NCBI GenBank assembly: GCA_951406725.2
Contig: OX597826.1
Span: 61,814,001 to 61,878,000, forward strand
Source: Octopus vulgaris
Taxonomy: Eukaryota
Reading direction: 5' to 3'
Length of the DNA stretch: 64,000 bases
Shown: piece by piece, positions 380-54,767 of the stretch
How the letters are laid out: each line of letters begins with the position of its first letter
How positions within the stretch are numbered: position 1 is the first letter of the stretch
The notes under the pieces: generated by a model
What the model was told of the DNA's origin: nothing
Databases searched by the model: none
The model's input: only the letters and a program-made list of their open reading frames with translations
Position numbers and translations under genes: made by a program

Positions 380-1801
380 TGTGAAGATTAAGCCACTTCT
401 TGTCTAGCATTTCGAAAACCCACGAGCATTCAAGTCGCACAAAATCCTGAAGGAGAAGCGGCAGGTCATGTGGAGGGTAAACTTTAAATCTTGGGTCACC
501 AGGCAATTCTCCACCGAGTGAGTCAACCTTATTTTCGGAATAGTATTGAAAAAGTAATTTCTGGAGTGCGATCTTCCTCTCAAGGCCCTCCTCATCCTCG
601 AGAATGTTCCTGCTCACTCCCCTAACTTTGAAGATGATATCCTGGACGAATGTAAATTCATAAAAGTTCTATACCTTTCACGCAACACTACCCCTATTTT
701 GCAGCCCATGGACCAACAGGTGATTTCTAATTTTAAGAAATTGTACACCAAACATCTGTTTGGTCGGTGCCCTGAACTCACCGAAAATACAAATCTAATC
801 ATTCGTGAGTTTTGGAAGAAGAACTACAACATTAACTGCCTGGAAATCATCGATTCGGCCTGGCAGAGTATAGAGAACGTTGAATTCTGCATGAAGAGAA
901 ATGTGACCTGACAGCGTATCCGAAAAAGATGCCGAGGGGTTAGAGTCTGAGACACCTGTAGTTGAGGAGATAGTGTCTCTTGGCAAGTCCATGAGCCGTG
1001 ACATTGATGATGAGGACATTAATGATCTCGTCGAGGAACACCCACAGGAGCTGAAGACAGATGAACTTAAGGAGCAGCAAAATTCGGATTCGGTGGAAGA
1101 GATTGGTTCTCCAGAGGAGGAAAGTGTAGCGGAGAAAGCTATCTCTAAGACTGACATAATGGCAATGTTGGCAAAGTGGCACTATGTTTCTGAATTTTAT
1201 AGCAAAATATCATCCTGAAAATGTATCTACAGGTCGTGCAGCTGCTTTATTCAATGATACCGTCCTGGCGCATTTTCGTAAGAATTTGAAAGGCAGGAAA
1301 AAATCAGTCTTCTCTTGACATGTTTCTAATTAAAAAACTTGTAAGCGTGGAAAGTGAAAAAAAAGTGTGTCCAAAAAGCCTAAATTAAGCGGAGAGAGAA
1401 AACTCCAGAAATTGTTCTTGCTGAAGTCTTAATGGGAGGAGATTCTCGTTCCAAACGATAATCCGACTCCTCTCCACTCCATCGTCTTCGTCCTGCATAC
1501 ATCGTCCCATTTTTAAAGTAATGAAACTAATAAAATCAGTTTACATATTTCTTTTGCATATTCTCTTTTATTATGTTTTCTATAATTGTCATTTTCTTTA
1601 TAACTGCATCGCTTCTGTTTTAAAACCCATAAAAAAATTATTCTTTGGTAGTTTATGGGTGGCGTTGGCAGAGGTGGTGCCGGAACGGATTAATTATGTT
1701 TTAATTAATTTCCATGGGGGAAAATTGATTCGTAAAACCAGTAAATCGTAAAACGAGCTCGGTCATGGAACGAATTAAACTCGTACTGAGAGGTATCATT
1801 G
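380..1801 (+). mobile_element. Decayed, 5'-truncated Tigger/pogo DNA transposon (DDE_1 transposase remnant)
   Basis: Frameshifted KIKPLLV*HFENPRAFK, LKALLILENVPAH, TTPILQPMDQQVISNFKKLYTK (TIGD1/Tigger-type motifs), acidic C-terminus, and a Tigger-like end GAGGTATCATTG followed by TA at about 1790-1803. Confidence 0.88.
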
Positions 1802-2149: not shown

Positions 2150-4490
2150 AATGTGGCACAGATCAATTCCTGGTTTGCTGCATTCTCAAACTTCAACTAA
2201 AAATGATTCACTGTGTCAAGCCTCCAGGCGTATCAATGCTACTGTGACCTAGCAGTCAGCCCTCCTTACAGACAACCCTGGAAGGTAATGTTGAGCAGAA
2301 ATGGGACTCTCTCAGGGACACCATCTATAGCACTTCATTAAAGGCTTAGGGTGAAAGGCACAGAATGACTCAAGACTGATTAGAGGCGAATGTAAATGAA
2401 CTCAATGCGCTCATAGAGAGGCGCATTGCTATGTTGAAGCACAAACACCAACCCGAGAGAGCAACGGTGCAAGAATTGAGTTGAGTGAGGGACAACACGC
2501 AGAAGAGAACAAAACGGTGGACAAATGACAACTGGTTAGAATTATGAGAAGTAACTTTCACGGAATGTATGAGTGCATCAAGAAAGTCATCGGCTCAAGC
2601 CAGAACAAGATATGGCTCCGCTCAAATATAGAACGGGGGAAGTCATCGAGGGCAAAAAAGAGCAATTGGAGAGATGGGTGGAGCATTACTCCAAACTCTA
2701 CGCCAGGGAAAACAATATCTCGAAAGGTGCGCTAGACACTGTTGAACACCTACCCGTCATGGTGGAACTGAATACATTGCTGACTGCTGGAAAGCTGAAC
2801 AGATTCATCGATGGCTTCCCCAATTGGAAGGCACCAGGATAGGACGGCCCCCACCAGAAGCCATTAAGTGGGCAAAGGGAGTTCTACTCAGCCACTTACT
2901 GAAACTACTATGTCCATGCTGGGAGGAGGAAACAGTTCTGCAAGACATGAGAAAGTGCAACATTGTCATTCTCTATAAAACAAAGGGAACAGAAGCGATT
3001 ACAATAGCTACCGAAGCATCTCACTGCTAAGCATCGTCGGGAAGGTCTTTGCCCGCGTGTTCCTGAACAGATTACCGAAAATTGCCGAGAGCGTACACCT
3101 GAATCTCAGTCCGGTTTCAGGTTAGTACATTCCTCCATCAACGTGGTCTCTCTTCGACAGCTACAGGAGGAATGCTGAGAGCAACGGTAACCACTCTACT
3201 CCACCTTCTTTGATCTCACAAAGCCTTTCGACCTAATGAGTAGAGACGGTCTTTTCAAAATCACAGCCAAGATTGACTGTCATCCAAGACCTCTCAGGAT
3301 ACTTCAATCGTTTCATGCGGATATGAAAGGCGTCGTTCAGTTTGTTAGTCCATCTTCCAAGTTCAACGTATGCAGCTGTGAAGCAGGGAAATGAGTTTAT
3401 CCTTACCTTATTCGGTGTCTTTCCGTTGTCATACTGAAACTCGCATTTGGTCAACTGATGGTGTCTACTTTCACGTCAGATCAGACGGAAAGCAGTTTAG
3501 TTTATCGAGGCAAAAGCTAAATCGAGTATCCATCAAAAACTCATCGGAGAAATACTGTTTGCGGACGATGCGGCATTGACAGTGCACTCTGAGAAGCAAA
3601 TGCAGCGTTTCGTACATAAATTCTCAAGGGCCTGCCAGCAATTCAGCTTGACTATTGTATTGAAGAAAACCAACATACTGGGCCAAGGTGTGAAGCACAC
3701 GACACCACCATTGTCACCATCAACAACTACGAGATGGAGGTAGTTCATGAATTCACCTACCTCTCCTGGGACCCTGAGATCAGCGGGCGAGTTGGACAAG
3801 CGTCCTCGATATTTGTAAGGCTGGTGAAGAAAGTTTGTTAGAACAGAAAACTGACCTCAAACACCAAGCTTCAGTGCATGCGCCATCAGCACATTATTCT
3901 ACAGCAGCGTGATATGGAGACTCCGCTCCAGACACGAGTGGCATCTCAGTATCTTCAACCTTGGTAGCCTGGGACGCATCTTGGGTATCAAGAGGACCGG
4001 CCGAGTCCCCAGAACGGAAATCCTCAACCGCGCCAAAAATACGCAAAATATTCACCCTGATTCAACAACGCTGTCTGTACTGACTTGGTCACGTATATTG
4101 TATGCCGGACGAGAGGATCTCAAAAGACATCCTATATGGTAAACTGGCCACCGGTACAAGACACGAGGACGACCTCATCTTCGTTTGAAAGAATTCTGCA
4201 AGCGAGATATGAAATCAGTTGATGTTCTGAGATTGGAGAGCAGCAAGGGGATCGAGAGAAGGGAAGAGAAACTGAAACTTGCCATGGATTGAAAAAAAAA
4301 ACAAGTGCGTGTGAAGACAGGAAAAGCTCAGTAGGCCCGGTGGAGAGTAACTTCAAATGCAGTCGCTGTATGCAGGAACACCACTCTCGTGTGTGCCTGT
4401 ACCGTCGCGACAGACGCTGTGCCGCCATCAGCAGCTACCACAAAATTCTCCAGGCGCAAACACATGATCTTTCCTAAGAGACAAATGTCT
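2150..4490 (+). mobile_element. Decayed 5'-truncated RTE-clade LINE (reverse transcriptase pseudogene)
   Basis: Interrupted RT motifs: ISLLSIVGKVFARV, PESQSGFR, LRQLQEEC, FFDLTKAFD, VKQG, LFADDAAL (about 3555-3578), LYGKLATG..RGRPHLR, and a C-terminal CxxC..SR..L zinc-finger-like segment typical of RTE. Confidence 0.9.
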
Positions 4491-13668: not shown

Positions 13669-16600
13669 TTTTCCTGGAAGCTTCAGGGAAAGTCCATAGG
13701 ATTTCAAGGTAAGTTCCGGGGATTTTCCAGCTTCCTGTGGAAATTTGGTCAGAAACTTCATGGAAAGTTCCGAGGATTTAATGGAAAGGTCCGAGGATTC
13801 CTACGACTTCCTGGAAAATTGATCAGAAACTTCATGGAAAGTTCCAGGGATGTCCCCGAATTCCTGGATTATTGGTCAGAAACTTCATGGAAAGCTCCGA
13901 GCATTCAATGGAAAGTACCGGGGATTCCCCCAACGTCCAGGAAAACTGGTCAAAAACTTCATGGAAAGTTCCGAGGATTCAATGGAAAGTTCCGGGGATT
14001 CACCTAACTTCCTGGAAAATTGGTCAGAAACTTCATGGAAAGTTCCGAGGATTATATGATAATAATATATAATTATATATAATATATAATTATATATATA
14101 TATATATAATTATATTAAAACCATGTAAGTGTGCGTATTTTCCTGGAAGCTTCATGGAAAGTCTATAGGATTTCAAGGTAAGTTCCGGGGATTTTCCAGC
14201 TTCCTGTGGAAATTTGGTCAGAAACTTCATGGAAAGTTCCGGGGATTCCCCAACATCCTGGAAATTTGGTCAGAAACTTCCTGGAAAGTTCCGAGGATTG
14301 CATGGAAAGTTGGTGAGGGGTATCCCCAACCTTCCTGGAAAATTGGTCAGAAACTTCATGGAAAGTTCCGGGGATTTCCCAAATTCCTGGAAAATTGGTC
14401 AGAAACTTCATGGGAAGTTCCGAGGATTTAACGGAAATTCCGGGGATTTCCCCGACATCCTGGAAAATTGGTCAGAAACTTCATGGAAAGTTCCGAGGAT
14501 TTCATGGAAATGTCCGATGATTTCCCAATTTCCTGGAAATTTGGTCAGAAAATTCATGGAAAGTTCCAAGGATTTCATGGAAATTTCCGGGAATTTCCTA
14601 ATTTCCTGAGAATTGGTCAGAAACTTCATGGAAAGTTCCGAGGATTCAATGGAAAGTTCCGGGAATTCCCCAACTTCCTGGAAAATTGGTCAGAAACTTC
14701 ACGGAAAGTTCCGAGGATTTAATGGAAATTTCCGGGGATTCCCCAAACTCACCGGAAAATTAGTCAGAAATTTCATGGAAAGTTCCGAGGATTTAATGGA
14801 AAGTTCCGAGAATTTAATGGAAAGTTCCGCGATTTCCCCAACTTCCTAGAAAATTGGTCAGAAACTTCATGGAAAGTTCCGAGGATTTAATGGAAAGTTA
14901 CGAGGTTTTAATGGAAAGTTCCGGGGATTCCCCAATCTCCTGGAAAAATGGTCAGAAACTTCATGGAAAATCCCGAGGATTTAATGGAAAGTTCAGGGGA
15001 TTTCCCCTACTTGCTGGAAATTTGGTCAGAAACTTCATGGAAAGTTCCGAGGATTTAATGGAAAGGTCCGAGGATTCCTACGACTTCCTGGAAAATTGAT
15101 CAGAAACTTCATGGAAAGTTCCAGGGATTTCCCCGACATCCTGGAAAATTGGTCAGAAACTTCATGGAAAGTTCCGAGGATTTCATGGAAATGTCCGATG
15201 ATTTCTTGGAAATTTGGTCAGAAAATTCATGGAAAGTTCCAACGATTTCATGGAAATGTCCGGGAATTTCCTAATTTCCTGAAAATTGGTCAGAAACTTC
15301 ATGGAAAGTTCCGAGGATTCAATGGAAAGTTCCGGGAATTCCCCTAACTTCCTGGAAAATTGGTCAGAAACTTCACGGAAAGTTCCGAGGATTTAATGGA
15401 AATGCCCGGGGATTCCCAAACTCCCCGGAAAATTAGTCAGAAACTTCATGGAAAGTTCCGAGGATTTAATGGAAAGTTCCGAGAATTTAATGGAAAGTTC
15501 GGGATTTCCCCAACTTCCTAGAAAATTGGTCAGAAACTTCATGGAAAGTTCCGAGGATTTAATGGAAAGTTACGAGGTTTTAATGGAAAGTTCCGGGGAT
15601 TCCCCAATCTCCTGGAAAAATGGTCAGAAACTTCATGGAAAATCCCGAGGATTTAATGGAAAGTTCAGGGATTTCCCCTACTTGCTGGAAATTTGGTCAG
15701 AAACTTCATGGAAATTTCCGAGGATTTAATGGAAAGGTCCGAGGATTCCTACGACTTCCTGGAAAATTGATCAGAAACTTCATGGAAAGTTCCAGGGATG
15801 TCCCCGAATTCCTGGATTATTGGTCAGAAACTTCATGGAAAGCTCCGAGGATTCAATGGAAAGTACCGGGGATTCCCCCAACGTCCAGGAAAACTGGTCA
15901 AAAACTTCATGGAAAGTTCCGAGGATTTCATGGAAAGTTCCGCGGATTTCCCCGACTTCCTGGATAATTGGACATAAACTTCATGGAAAGTTCCAAGGAT
16001 TTCATGGAAAGTTCCAGGGATTTCCCCGAATTACCTGGAAAATTGGTCAGAAACTTCATGGAAAGTTCCGAGGATTTAATGGAAAGTTACGAGGATTTAA
16101 TGGAAAGTTCAGGGGATTCCCCCAACTTCCTGGAAAATTGGTCAGAAACTTTTGGGAAAGGTCCGGGGATTTCCCAAATTCCTAGAAAATTGGTCAGAAA
16201 CTTCATGGAAAGTTCCGAGAATTTAATGGAAAGTTCCGGGGATTCCCCCAACTTCCTGGAGATTTGATCAGAAACTTTATGGAAAGTCCCGGGGATTTCC
16301 CCGACATCCTGGAAAACTGGTCAGAAACTTCATGGAAAGTTCCGATAATTTCATGGAAATGTCCGCGGATTTCCCCGACTTCCTGGAGAATTGGTCAGAA
16401 ACTTCATGGAAAGTTCCAAGGATTTCATGGAAAGTTCCAGGGAATTCCCCGAGTTCCTGGAAAATTGGCCAGAAACTACATGGAAAGTTCCGCGGATTTA
16501 ATGGAAAGTTACGTGGATTTAATGGAAAGTTCAGGGGATTCCCCCAACTTCCTGGAAAATTGGTCAGAAACTTTTGGGAAAGTTCCGAGGATTTCATGGA

Positions 16601-17228
16601 AATGTCCGGGGATTTCCCAAATTCCTAGAAAATTGGTCAGAAACTTCATGGAAAGTTCCGAGAATTTAATGGAAAGTTCCGGAAACTTCATGGAAAGTTC
16701 CGAGAATTTAATGGAAAGTTCCGGAAACTTCCTGGAAATTTGGTCGGAAAGTTCATGAAAGTTCTGATGAATTAATCGAAAGTTCTAGGGATTTCCCCGA
16801 CTTCCTGGAAATTTGGTCAGAAACTTCATGGAAAGTTCCGAGGATTTAATGGAAAGTTCCGGGGATTTCCCCGACTTCCTAGAAAATTGATCGGGAACTT
16901 CCTGGAAAGTTCCCAGGATTTCATAGAAAGTTCGGGGTTTTCCCAACTTCCTGGTAAATTGGTCAGAAACTTCATGGAAAGTTCCGGCCATTCCCAACTT
17001 TCCGGAAAATATCTCGGAAACCTCCTGTAATGTTCCAGGATTTCATGGAAAGTTCCGGGGATTTTCCAACTTCATGGAAAATTTGGTAGGAAATTTCATG
17101 GGAAGTTCTGAGGATTTCAAGGAAAGTTCCGCGGATTTCCTAACTTTTTGGAAACTTGGTTGGAAACTTCATGGAAATTTCCGAGGATTTCATGGATAGT
17201 TCCGGGAATTCCCCAACTTCCTGGAAAA
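13669..17228. repeat. About 3.6-kb complex satellite of 21-30 bp GGAAA-initiated subunits with higher-order repeats
   Basis: Recurring modules GGAAAATTGGTCAGAAACTTCAT, GGAAAGTTCCGAGGATTTAAT and GGAAAGTTCCGGGGATTCCCCAACTTCCT; larger blocks recur (about 14445-15110 vs about 15126-15780). Confidence 0.95.
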
Positions 17229-17257: not shown

Positions 17258-17742
17258 AGTTATTGTTCATTGACAATTCGCTTTCAAGGGCTCGACCGTT
17301 AGTCGTGTGTTCTACTGCGATGGTTTGAATCGTTCGAAGGAAGACATTCAACCAGATCTGTGGAACGTGAAGAACTGGATTCTTCACGACGACAATGCCT
17401 CCGAGTTCTTCTCACTCGTCAGTTTCGCGTCATAAAACATTGTATCGCTTCCGAAACTGTCCTGTTTACCAGTCCAGTACCTTGCGACTTCCACCTCTTC
17501 TCCAAGAGGAAAATACTGCTCAAAGGTCGCTGTTTCAACATCATTGTTGAGATCCAGAACGAATCGCAGAAAGTACTCGGAAATCGACTTCCAGACCGCT
17601 TTCCAAAAGAGGCAGTAACGCTGGGACCGGTGTATTGTTACGCAAGGTGATTATTTTGAAGGAGATGATGTGAAAACTTAAATAAATAAATTAATTTTTA
17701 TTAAACATATCCAGTTCAGAAACTTCTTCATACATGTCATAT
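17258..17742 (+). mobile_element. Decayed mariner transposase, C-terminal half
   Basis: IVH..., WILHDDNA, PCDFHLF, LKGRCF, RWDRCIVTQGDYFEGD, then a TIR-like end before TA at about 17740. Confidence 0.85.
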
Positions 17743-31529: not shown

Positions 31530-31705
31530 ATTCTTTTATTCTTTTACTTGTTTCAGTCATTTGACCCCGGGACTTATTCTTTGTAAGCCCAGTATTTATT
31601 CTATCGGTTTCTTTTGCCGAACCGCTAAGTGACGGGGACGTAAACACTCCAGCATCGGTTGTCAACCAATGCTAGGGGGACAAACATAGACATACACACA
31701 CACAT

Positions 31706-31738
<33 letters not shown>

Positions 31739-31895
31739 CATATATACGACATACTTCTTTCAGTTTCCGTCTACCAAATCCACTCACAAGGCATTGGTCG
31801 GCCCGGGGCTATAGCAGAAGACACTTGCCCAAGATGCCACCCGGAACCATGTGGTTGGTTAGCAAAATACTTACCACACAGCCACTCCTGCGCCT
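31530..31895 (-). mobile_element. SINE family A copy (internal deletions)
   Basis: Reverse complement closely matching 33140-33536. Confidence 0.9.
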
Positions 31896-33139
31896 ATATA
31901 TATATATATATATATTTATGGTGTAATGAATATGGTGGAACCCGACATGGGCAAAGTTATAAATGATAGCCTAAATAATATTGTGCTAAGACACTAGTTG
32001 TATGGATAAAGCTGAACGTTGATCGGCGGATTCTAACCATATAATCTGTGAATTGAACATATGATAGGTGCTCATAGCATTACACAAATGCATGCAACAC
32101 CTTGAATTTTCTCGAGTCTACTTTACTTCAGTTTCGAAACACTCATAATGTAAACATCTTACGTATCTTGCTGGTAAGAACAAAACTTACAAAATAGGTG
32201 GAAAAAATTCAAAAATATTTTGCTTGATTTAATGATTTTGTGTGTGTGTGTGTTTGTGAGTTTATGTGTGTACGTGTGCGCGTTTGTGTGTAGATGTGTG
32301 TATATATTTAATATATATATTGTACATGTGCATACAGAATGTAAACAAGGGCAAACGTACAAACAATATATATACATTTATATATTTTTGTTATATATTT
32401 TAATATGTGTATGTGCATGTGTGTGAGCGTGCTTTTTTGTATAAAGATATATTTAATATTTAATTAACTTAGTGTCACTATATTTAATGTAACCACAAAA
32501 ATACTAAAAATAATTACATCATAGTAATTTTATTACAGTGAAATAATTTGTAACTGTATTTATAAATATTTATTACAAAATCATAAATTCTCCGCCATCT
32601 GTCTATTTATCTTTCAACACACGTTCTGTTAAATATAAATGTATGAATGTATTCTGTTTCTAAAAGATTTTCTAACATAGGTTCTCATACTCCAAGGTAC
32701 TTGAGCAGGTTTACAGCATTGTTGAATCTTCTGTGAAACGTAATGAATATAAAATGTGAGTTTTCACGGTTCAGGTCGAAGAAGGGATCTACGGCTGGTA
32801 TATGTGCCTGATTAATTTTTAAATACCACTAAGTAAAATCCAATTTAGTCTTCCTATTTCGAGAAACAACTTGATAGATTTCTATATTGTATATCTGAAT
32901 CATTCACACTGTCCGTCGCTACAGGGACTTCACAGATAAGTCAATATTTAATATATTTCCCTAAAGATAAAGTAAATGTCATGAACTTTTCTCCAGTAAA
33001 TGAAGCTCAAAGTGTCCGAACGAATACTGTAAGAATAATCAAATAATGTAAGTATTGATTTCGTACACTCAGACGGTATTTTAAAACTCTACTGATGACG
33101 CAGAAAAGTAAAATGAAAACGATTATTAAAAAAAAAACA

Positions 33140-33536
33140 GGCGCTGGAGTGGCTGCGTGGTAAGTAGCTTGCTAACCAACCACATGGTTCCGGGTTCAGT
33201 CCCACTGCGTGGCATCTTGGGCAAGTGTCTTCTACTATAGCCCCGGGCCGACCAATGCCCTGTGAGTGGATTTGGTAGACGGAAACTGAAAGAAGCCTGT
33301 CGTATATATGTATATATATGTGTGTGTATGTGTTTGTGTGATTGTCCCCCTAGCATTGGTTGACAACCGATGCTGGTGTGTTTACGTCCCCGTCACTTAC
33401 CGGTTCGGCAAAAGAGACCGATAGAATAAGTACTGGGCTTACAAAGAATAAGTCCCGGGGTCGATTTGCTCGATTAAAGGCGGTGCTCCAGCATGACCGC
33501 AGTGAAATGACTGAAACAAGTAAAAGAGTAAAAGAG
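33140..33536 (+). mobile_element. Near-complete SINE family A copy
   Basis: Intact head, B box GGTTCAGTCCC, core, internal microsatellite and (GTAAAAGA)2 tail. Confidence 0.92.
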
Positions 33537-36647: not shown

Positions 36648-37749
36648 CTGTAATGATATCAAAAGGAGACAATGGATGAACCTATCTCGATCTGCTAGAA
36701 ATAGCGTCTAATTCTCTTCTGAAACAAATCGTACAATTTTAAATAGAATAGGTAAAAACATTGGATAATCACAGGTGGATCGTCTTAATTCACATGCATG
36801 TATAAGTTTGTTCGAAACCCATCTTATTAACGCGATGTATACAGCTCACGTTACGCATTTGCTCGGCTTGTACAAGAAAAGTATTGCTCGAGCTGTACGA
36901 GAAAAATATTGGTTTTGTGTACTCTGTGAAGTTCTTTAAATCTGTCACCCGTTTCTCTTCCCAGATGCATCGTTTCTCTGTTAAGCTTTCTGTTAGATAT
37001 TAATTCTCTTCTTGTAATAGGTTCTTCTCTTGAACTGATGTTCTTTGGAACTGACTACTCTGGTCTTGCTTCTCTTTGGTATACAAAAATTAGACTTTCG
37101 AGTTTTCTGTCAATCGAAGTTGTTAGCCCGCTTTCTTTTCCTTCCCTGAGGCTCAGTACTTTGTGCTGAAAAAAGTTCTTTTAAATCATATCCCACAGTC
37201 TAAAAAGAAAAGAGAAATTGAATAATTTGATCCTACGTATACACAAGGTGGTGATGATCACGGCAAGAACGTCTTTGATCATAGATATTCTCATTCCTGA
37301 TTAATCTGGACTTAAACAGCAATAATCAGATTAAAATCTCACCATGAAATGGAAGAGGATTCAACTGGCCAATCACTGTCGTTGATGATGCTAATGTTTT
37401 TGTTGTTGATGCTAATGTTGCTATAGTAATTGCTGATGCAATTACTCAATACAGCTGAAAGCCGAGCAGATACGAAATGTATATTTGTGTACCAATGTTG
37501 CAGATCATAATCGAGATATTGTAAAGTGGAGCACGAAGTTGTCGCGTACACTAAATATCTGGCAGAATTTAATCTCTATATTCTGCATTGAAATTGCGCA
37601 TGAACATTTGCTTCCCGTCTGATGTGGAAAATTGTAAATTCCAGTAATATATTCAGGAATGATAAACTTTACATCACCCATCGGCATTTATAAGCAAGTG
37701 TCACTATCAGAAGGACAATGTTATTAACATAATGTATTATTAATGTTAT

Positions 37750-40580: not shown

Positions 40581-40641
40581 CTTGGTATTGTTGAATAACT
40601 GCTAGACTCTGGCGGTCTGGACCATCGAAAGACACTGGACC
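40581..40641 (-). CDS. GABA-B-R3: Internal exon (61 nt, phase 0-1) of the GABA-B receptor-like gene
   Basis: Acceptor ttcattgccag|GGT, donor CAAG|gtaaga. Encodes GPVSFDGPDRQSLAVIQQYQ(G), continuing FVGVS in frame (GABA-B GVSGxVxF...DR motif). Confidence 0.9.
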
Positions 40642-43699: not shown

Positions 43700-44587
43700 T
43701 AGGTTAATTAACATGTACTTTTAGCTGCGAGATATTCTATTAAAATTCCTTATTTCACGAAAAGATTTTTTCAAATTTGATCTTAGATGTTATTTTTGTT
43801 GTGTTTTAGACGAAATTTTACATGATTAATAATTGATGTGTTGTCTTTAATAAAATTTTATTGATTTTTTTTCAAGATATAATTTTGAAGCGTAGAAATC
43901 CTTGACGTCAAGCATGAAAAAAAACAAAAAAAAACGTTTACTTTTTGGCATGAATTCAAGCTTGGACATAATGCTTCTCAAACAGCTACCGATAACAAAA
44001 GAAGATGGGGTGAAGGTTCCACTAGTGATCGAACGGTAAAACAGTGGTTTGAGAGATTCCGTAGTGAGGAGGAGATACTTGAAAATCAAGGAGATAGAGG
44101 ACGTCCATCCACCCTCGATGGTCAGCATTTTAAAAGATACAATACATCTTTCTGGAATATAACCAGAGCATTACATCGGAAGTTTAGTATAAACAACTGA
44201 AAGAAATGCATGTTTACTTGAGCAAATGAGACGTGGTCCAAGTCTGCTCCATGACAACGCTCGACCGCACGTTTCCAGGATGAAACTGCAGAAGCTCACA
44301 AACTTAGGATACGGGACTTTACCACACCTTCCATATTCTTCTGGTCTTTTACACATCGACTACCACTTTTCCAAACATCGTGACACATTTTTAAGGCAAC
44401 AAGACATTCCGTTCCAAAACCGAGGTCGAATTCAAGGAGAGGCAAACATGACCTTGTTAATCGATGGGAGAAATGCATAGTTGTTCAGGGATCATATCTT
44501 AAATAATTAAACCTTTGTATAAAATCGATTTTTCAAGAATATAAGCTTAATTTAAAAATCGGCCATTTTTTTCTTAACAACCTAATA
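43700..44587 (+). mobile_element. Internally deleted mariner (Hsmar1/cecropia-like) transposon
   Basis: HEFKLGHNASQTA..WGEGSTSDRTVKQWFERFRS..RGRPS (HTH), GPSLLHDNARPH, LPHLPYS, DYHF; right TIR-like end ...CAACCTAA then TA at about 44585. Left boundary uncertain. Confidence 0.87.
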
Positions 44588-52898: not shown

Positions 52899-53918
52899 AT
52901 GTATAATATTTCAAAATATAATATTATGTATAATATTTCAAAATAGCTAAAGCAAGAGAGTAGACAAGAAGTTTTAGCTGATCCCCAATTCTTCATAAAG
53001 ATGAAGAACAGTAAATGTAATTCTACATCTAAGCCTGGAGGTAACTTAACTTAGCTACAACTGAGATAGGATAATAAGGTAAAAGATTTTAAATGACTTC
53101 AATTATAACATTGCAATGGAGTAATTGTTTCCATAACATGGATAAAAAGCGTATCTGTAACTTTAATCAATTCGAAATTGTTGAATTCTATCCTTCAATA
53201 TCTAAATCGAATCTTAATGGACAAATACTTGTTTGCTAGTAATAAATAAAGAAAGCGTTTCCACACGCACAAACTTACATCACGCTAATTTTCTATTACC
53301 AGTGTGAGAAACGATAGTTCATAGAAGCACTGATAGAACACAGAACTGATGGTAATGCAGAAATACCAATGCTTAGGCACTGAATAAATAAGTCTTGAAA
53401 CAGACAAACAATAGCAGAAGTTACCTATATGTGGCTAAAATGCAACGTGGGACGCATCACTGACTAGAAGTTGAAGAGAAGATTTTATAACCATACAGTC
53501 TTATTTTTATATTTCGCAAGAAATGCAACAAAAATAACCGATTCAGTTTGTTAATTAAAAGAGAAAAATATAATTTCTATATTAAGTAGAAAATTGCCGA
53601 ACGATTAAAACTCTAAAACAATAATTCTTGATTTATTGAAATGATCTTAAAAGACATGAAACCCTAAAATGTATTTAAGCACCAGATCGAAGTTAAGCAG
53701 GAACTGCAGATAATTTGAACTGAATGTATCAGAGTAGATCAAATTACTTTCACATTGCATTTAAGACTAATTTTTATACAGACTAACACACATACACATA
53801 TATGATATTCAATATTATACAATATGATATATATATATATAAGGATAAGACCGTTATTTAAAATACCGATCATATCAAGTGGCCAGCATAAGAATATAAA
53901 TCTTATACGTAATAATAA

Positions 53919-54206
53919 TTATTAAAATTATGATTAAGTGTATTTAAAAGATACTACCATGCTAGAGATAGCAGTCACAACTTGACTTTAAAACCACATC
54001 ATGTATTCATACGGCACCAGGAGAAAAGACAAATACACAAATAAACTGGTAAAAAATTATTGGATAATTTTTTTGCTAGTTTATTTGTGTATTTGTCTTT
54101 TCTCCAGGTGCTTTATGAATACATGATGTAGTTTTAGAGTCATGTTTTGACTGCTATCTCTAGCATGGTGGTATCTTTTAGATACACTTAATCATAATTT
54201 TAATAA
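53919..54206. repeat. Long near-perfect inverted repeat (142/143-nt arms, 3-nt spacer)
   Basis: 53919-54060 is the reverse complement of 54064-54206 with 11 substitutions and a 1-nt indel; spacer TGG. Confidence 0.97.
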
Positions 54207-54207
54207 C

Positions 54208-54273
<66 letters not shown>

Positions 54274-54512
54274 ATGTGTGTGTATGCATGTATGCATGTA
54301 TGCATGTATGCATGTATGCATGTATGTATGAAAGTATATATGTGTGTGTAAACATGCATATAAACATACATACATATATCTATCAATATGTATCCATGGA
54401 CAACACATACAAGGCATGCACATGCACACACATACTATATGTAGTTGTAGCATCTGATAGGAAGAACAAAGCTGTTTTTGCAAATATATTTCAGGTAACT
54501 GGGTGAACTTAC

Positions 54513-54767
54513 CGAAACTCCTACAAACTCTAATTTATCAATTGTTTCTAAGAATTGTTTGCTCAAATTGGAACCGGATTCATATTGGAAGTGCTCAAGG
54601 TGTACGTCTTTAGGGTCATCGGAATCACTTCCGTTGATTTTCTCTTCGACAACACTTTTGAGTGTCAAGGCTATTGTCCAGATTGCATCGTATGTGTTGG
54701 TAGCGTGGGGACTGATAGGTGCCGTACCGTTGTTCAGGAAATATTCTTCAATAAAATCTTCCGTTGT
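54513..54767 (-). CDS. GABA-B-R3: Internal exon (255 nt, phase 0-0) of a GABA-B receptor-like class C GPCR, Venus-flytrap domain
   Basis: Minus strand acceptor ...tttctcccacacag|ACA and donor TCG|gtaagt. Open 85-codon frame TTEDFIEEYFLNNGTAPISPHATNTYDAIWTIALTLKSVV...LEHFQYESGSNLSKQFLETIDKLEFVGVS carries the GABA-B motifs YDAIWxIAL and FxGVS. Subunit assignment is from recalled similarity to Drosophila GABA-B-R3 and is less certain than the family call. Confidence 0.9.

Follow-up and report, generated by a model that had tools for sequence, protein, structure and literature searches.

A long intronic hairpin beside a GABA-B-type receptor exon of Octopus vulgaris as the probable by-product of a Penelope-like insertion

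A 142-bp hairpin in an intron of a putative GABA-B-type receptor gene of Octopus vulgaris very probably arose as a by-product when a non-autonomous Penelope-like (retrozyme-type) element inserted, in a single event, and placed two truncated repeat copies head to head between (TA)n tracts. When transcribed with the intron, the stem would plausibly serve as an incidental substrate of ADAR, and nothing indicates that it has been selected for an ADAR role. Positions of the features are given in Table 1; the window is the whole stretch of DNA analysed, 64,000 nucleotides.

Table 1. Features at the hairpin locus, in window positions
Feature	Position	Strand	Basis or remark
Hairpin of 142 bp in pre-mRNA	53919-54206	-	self-alignment and folding
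Repeat copy 1	53841-54068	-	monomer 233-461 of L033; blastn 86%
Repeat copy 2	54064-54213	+	monomer 241-389 of L033; blastn 87%
Tail of copy 1, unpaired, ~78 nt	53841-53918	-	found in many other copies
Head-to-head junction	54053-54072	.	short monomer palindrome; 5-nt overlap at 54064-54068
(TA)n tract	53828-53841	.	left flank of likely target site; sequence
(TA)n followed by (TG)n	54211-54253	.	right flank of likely target site; sequence
Host exon	54513-54767	-	donor at 54512; spliced contig, 0 differences
Start of next exon	40611-40640	-	exact match of the contig's downstream loose end

The fold-back is real. The two 142-bp arms and 3-nt spacer described in the initial annotation are reproduced (53919-54060 and 54064-54206, 92% complementary), and the folds lie far below those of shuffled sequences: -188.6 kcal/mol on the minus strand (z -28.9) and -202.1 kcal/mol on the plus strand (z -33.7), with none of 100 shuffles as stable in either case. 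That annotation overlooked that the left arm runs on for about 78 nt, to 53841, as the same repeat; mean pairing probability is 0.91 in the stem versus 0.59 in this left tail. Its mismatch count was obtained again. The arms differ by 11 substitutions and one indel; seven of the 11 are transitions, and on the minus strand these give six A-C mismatches versus one G-U, although two of the six hinge on the position of a gap in the central A-run, and automatic alignment of the 142-bp core gives 4:1. The earlier p of about 0.06 agrees with a one-sided binomial value of 0.0625; the two-sided value is 0.125, and the 6:1 bias is therefore within chance. On the pre-mRNA strand the hairpin has 107 adenosines.

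The annotated host exon and its donor are borne out by a spliced contig of 3621 nt, from a run guessed to be RNA, that spans the exon and has splice-type loose ends. As the next exon begins at 40640, the host intron is about 13.9 kb long, and the stem lies about 300 nt from the donor. What is the host gene? It is likely a class C GPCR of GABA-B type, with the exon in the predicted ligand-binding region, and so the GABA-B identity first proposed stands as likely, on weak matches. The exon matches Pfam ANF_receptor at E 0.0037, below the curated cutoff, and ANF_receptor clusters of the ESM Atlas at 0.97; a PDB search with it gave no match. With a later exon of the gene the sole PDB matches are GABA-B subunits, at a weak E of 0.3-1.1. 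The same gene carries a second inverted pair (31563-31895 and 33139-33462; 348 nt, 85% identity, 1.2 kb apart), which belongs to another common repeat and is a potential source of dsRNA. Also in the window are a long, GC-richer tandem array at about 13780-17070, with repetitive open frames on both strands, and open-frame fragments at 558-908 (+), 17303-17647 (+) and 43889-44477 (+) that presumably resemble Tigger/mariner-like DNA transposases.

How did the hairpin originate? The insertion spans 53841-54213 and consists of two 5'-truncated repeat copies, head to head. Copy 1 includes the left arm and has the distal 3' end (the 'B end') at 53841; copy 2 makes the right arm and stops at the proximal 3' end (the 'A end'). 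The copies end differently, at monomer positions 461 and 389, and about 78 nt of the left copy are therefore without a stem partner. These coordinates are those of a natural reference copy, L033, which itself extends only to 461; the true distal end may be slightly beyond that. The exact 20-mer at the junction occurs once in the genome, and a search with a longer junction pattern gave no genomic match. The junction sits 4 nt short of a predicted ribozyme cleavage site, and the window copy is without the hammerhead-like motif of the full monomer. A preference of fold-backs for the cleavage site was rejected as a general rule, as the 5' ends of 104 segments form no sharp peak at that site. In another copy of the family (L013:1650-1720) a short segment is triplicated at the inversion junction, which suggests repeated template jumps during integration.

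The element belongs to a dispersed family that is abundant in all organisms examined. A genome search with the arm gave 48 matches on many chromosomes, of 79-100% identity (40 scored of 902 candidates), and a 22-mer taken from the arm has 78 exact matches in the genome versus 0 for a control; both counts are lower bounds. Other parts of the repeat unit gave 1179 and 1626 candidates, and on a rough reading the family is of the order of a thousand pieces. An extrapolation of copy number from a ratio of 1/56 was discarded, being biased by the removal of loci that overlap the 22-mer sample. Comparison of flanks defines a repeat unit some 460-470 nt in length. One unit may run on into another: in 18 cases the end of a monomer passes in tandem into the start of the next. 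The 165 loci of 2-3 kb that were searched showed no long tandem arrays; in two of these there are two motifs on the same strand (a consecutive partial dimer in L179, a spaced pair in L155). No title or abstract opening in the literature search describes such a family, but it may already be catalogued. An arm-like motif of about 20 nt at window positions 36693 and 45795, initially thought to mark an old dispersed repeat, has scores of 43 and 54, where the null distribution has its median at 45 and its 95th percentile at 61, and these sites do not hold up as copies of the family. The motif is present in otherwise unrelated repeats (these two sites, L060, L128, L129 and L153) and could be a recognition motif common to several repeat families.

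Is the element a MITE or foldback DNA transposon, its stem formed by terminal inverted repeats? It is short, non-coding, high-copy, AT-rich and TA-flanked, and it has long inverted arms, all as expected of a MITE. The family architecture makes this very improbable. The outer ends are unlike each other: 37 of 43 head-to-head loci pair one A end with one B end, and 3' ends cluster at monomer positions 370-389 and 450-461 or beyond. The inversion point is different at every locus; many of the 53 close junctions lie at small palindromes or short overlaps, and the window junction, as noted, is unique. The 22-mer marks 74 loci, of which 73 were analysed (one was lost in de-duplication): 43 are head to head and 30 are not, and over all distinct loci the head-to-head form is found in 66 of 116. 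The tandem continuation of the monomer into itself also speaks against a MITE. A (TA)4 or longer tract lies within 30 nt of 66 of the 110 outer A or B ends, versus 6% of random 30-mers from the window. The initial annotation had offered a neutral, repeat-derived inversion as an alternative to function. This was right in kind, but the structure appears to be a head-to-head insertion of retroelement type, neither a MITE nor a local duplication.

An assembly fold-back artefact has a practically negligible probability. Among the contig pieces listed none crosses the central junction, as an artefact would predict; however, the arms differ at 11 positions and by an indel, the same architecture recurs genome-wide, and one contig matches 53948-54044 exactly. 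Furthermore, for the best-matching organism two studies provide contigs that lead from unique flanking sequence into the element, as far as 53860 and 53887. Contigs of organism A continue into the element. In organisms B and C the contigs break off at the (TA)n tract on its left side (53841); the site may be empty there, or the TA run may be longer.

Do the mismatches carry a signature of editing? Sister hairpins of the family provide a comparison. In 51 of them (5183 paired sites) there are 132 G-U versus 138 A-C mismatches, and with polarity oriented like the hairpin under study the split is 130 versus 140 (p 0.58). Two of the 24 sisters that have five or more transitions show a 6:1 split, and four of the 24 are skewed by at least 80%. 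Arm divergence is 9.4% in the pooled sisters versus 7.7% here (8.7% by automatic alignment). All six A-C mismatches are private changes of the left arm, four G>A and two T>C in element sense, as judged against the commonest letter of each alignment column; the most rapid substitutions in the family are G>A and C>T. ADAR marks in the inserted cDNA were considered and rejected, as none of the seven transitions is A>G in element sense. Two rare alleles are common to both arms, a feature found likewise in 15 of the 51 sisters, and rare alleles are shared between sister arms at about four times the cross-locus rate. Such sharing is consistent with a single RNA template for each insertion or with conversion of one arm by the other; selection is not required. 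To judge by the alignments, the mismatches look like ordinary decay, not tuning for RNA editing. The proposal in the initial annotation, an A-C-biased stem shaped to recruit ADAR, is thus not supported, in view of the balanced polarity of the family and the ordinary divergence of the arms; a high-copy element (78 copies of the 22-mer) with random polarity (132:138) is the very pattern which that annotation had set against its own proposal.

The same comparison bears on an antisense reading, whereby the locus is a hairpin-RNA or endo-siRNA gene stabilized by G-U pairs on the plus strand. The plus strand does fold better, by 13.5 kcal/mol, but this gap restates the 6:1 split; sisters skew in either direction, and the stem has no Rfam match. 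This earlier suggestion is extremely unlikely to be correct.

Could the inserted hairpin have been co-opted as an editing inducer, gathering ADAR locally and so increasing the recoding of the receptor exon beside it? Here the likeness to known editing-inducer elements (Gabra3, GluA2, inverted Alu) has to be weighed: a long intronic stem, of 142 bp, lies a few hundred nucleotides from an expressed exon of a neurotransmitter receptor, and its arms have two rare alleles in common. In PMC4053975 inverted Alu repeats are reported to act as inducers of editing over distances of hundreds of nucleotides, so a repeat origin is compatible with co-option. Nevertheless, co-option is quite improbable. Unlike the inducers, the stem decays like its neutral sisters, to which it is equal in divergence and polarity, and the shared rare alleles are frequent there too. 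The exon is without a long duplex: its longest internal MFE helix is 8 bp, and its summed pairing with the element is about 0.6 bp. The one RNA-type contig, its tissue not stated, shows 0 differences in the exon, which rules out majority editing only, and in that sample, as contigs hide minority edits. Inducers described in parts of PMC5654063 are conserved and flank efficient sites.

The family has a ribozyme-like motif. In full monomers it lies immediately upstream of the arm region and resembles a type I hammerhead; helix I has 6 bp, and helix III is short and palindromic. Core motifs and helices are in place. In an alignment of 50 of 59 copies (nine with deletions omitted; the structure was named by eye from the same copies) 92% of cells are paired, versus 18-49% in slid controls. 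Double-sided changes number 22 versus 9.1 in shuffles, with none of 500 shuffles as high, although they concentrate at one pair and may represent one inherited subfamily event. A near-invariant extra A is present between stem II and GAAA (e.g. L033:1571-1637, minus strand), and the loop of helix III takes the form of one or the other of two palindromes. The folds of four monomers are no more stable than those of shuffled sequences (z -0.5 to -0.8), and an Rfam search of 16 loci and one motif region gave no hammerhead, only microsatellite-driven miRNA hits.

A coding partner was sought with three clean Penelope-type (Poseidon-like) open reading frames of this genome as queries against 165 family loci. 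Only L005, which belongs to a different family, and one weak match (E 0.004) were found; hits of a fourth, low-complexity query frame (L153) were discarded. Coding Penelope-type elements are abundant in the genome (6725 candidates; an RVT_1 match), and their ribozyme and ends are unlike those of the 460-470-nt monomer. One very abundant coding family of this type, distinct from the repeat, is represented by L005 (about 2250-3142, minus) and L136-L153. It has a 569-amino-acid open frame at L148:2387-4093 (minus) and its own conventional hammerhead-type motif near the open reading frame.

How does the family compare with known systems? Features also described in sections of PMC8557442, PMC11167929 and PMC4209133 for Penelope-like elements (Penelope/Poseidon, Neptune, Naiad) are an inverted 5'-truncated copy, partial tandems, extension at one end, two 3' end points, microsatellite or AT-rich targets and a hammerhead-type motif. 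In particular, passages of PMC8557442 report Penelope elements next to which lies an inverted, 5'-truncated copy, and which often have a tail at one end and favour microsatellites, and passages of PMC11167929 describe two internal start sites of reverse transcription, cutting and extension of both strands and a preference for AT-rich sites. On the other hand, the tail is about 75-85 nt here versus the 30-40 bp described, there is no open reading frame or linked coding partner in the 165 loci with Poseidon-like queries, and the dominant coding Penelope family of this genome has a different ribozyme motif. Retrozymes offer a second parallel. Animal non-LTR retrozymes have a type I hammerhead and monomers of 150-450 bp; the repeat found here is slightly longer. 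Type I ribozymes with a palindromic helix III, and retrozyme monomers, are treated in parts of PMC4209133 and PMC7229834, and part of a preprint (bioRxiv 10.64898/2026.07.22.740005) regards retrozymes as non-autonomous Penelope derivatives. The likeness lies in a non-coding, low-GC monomer that continues into itself (sections of PMC7229834 and of the same preprint) and in a single type I hammerhead-like motif whose helix III is short and palindromic (sections of PMC7229834). Unlike retrozymes, the family occurs mostly as truncated head-to-head pairs, not as tandem arrays, and it has the extra A before GAAA. In its workings the family resembles a non-autonomous Penelope element or a retrozyme; as a retrozyme in the strict sense it is a candidate.

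The insertion that we favour for the hairpin would proceed as follows. A Penelope-type RT/GIY-YIG protein, supplied in trans, would cut an AT-rich site. Reverse transcription would begin at two internal sites of the RNA, at about monomer positions 375-389 and 450-470, with one start site used at each DNA end. The truncated cDNAs might then join via the 5-nt microhomology at the short palindrome; alternatively, a single cDNA might snap back at the palindrome. The arms would be nearly identical at birth and would since have undergone about 8% neutral decay.

What would be the fate of such a stem in RNA? According to parts of PMC5625713, hyper-editing in octopus is very high, and palindromic repeats, including a lizard Penelope, are heavily edited; in parts of PMC9068888 the ubiquitous editing of squid is located in introns and repeats. 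Like the frog Harbinger and lizard Penelope palindromes in those sections of PMC5625713, the hairpin is self-contained and needs no second copy, but it is made anew at each insertion and is not part of a palindromic consensus. Should the stem be edited, by-product hyper-editing of the kind reported there is its likeliest fate. A broader proposal is that an undescribed Penelope/retrozyme family builds a ready-made hairpin at most of its insertions, providing about a thousand potential ADAR substrates, some of which act as editing inducers. This is unlikely as a whole. If it were true, the family's hairpins, seeded in the genome and in those of relatives, would help to explain the heavy editing in the lineage, and the one beside the GABA-B-type exon might be among the inducers.

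Long intronic hairpins arise routinely in this genome from the insertion mechanism of one repeat family, and neither the strength of a hairpin nor a 6:1 wobble bias is therefore a sign of an editing element. The family also offers clear genomic support for Penelope-type integration with two start sites used at opposite DNA ends. Its sister hairpins constitute built-in neutral controls against which co-option of a hairpin into editing can be tested.
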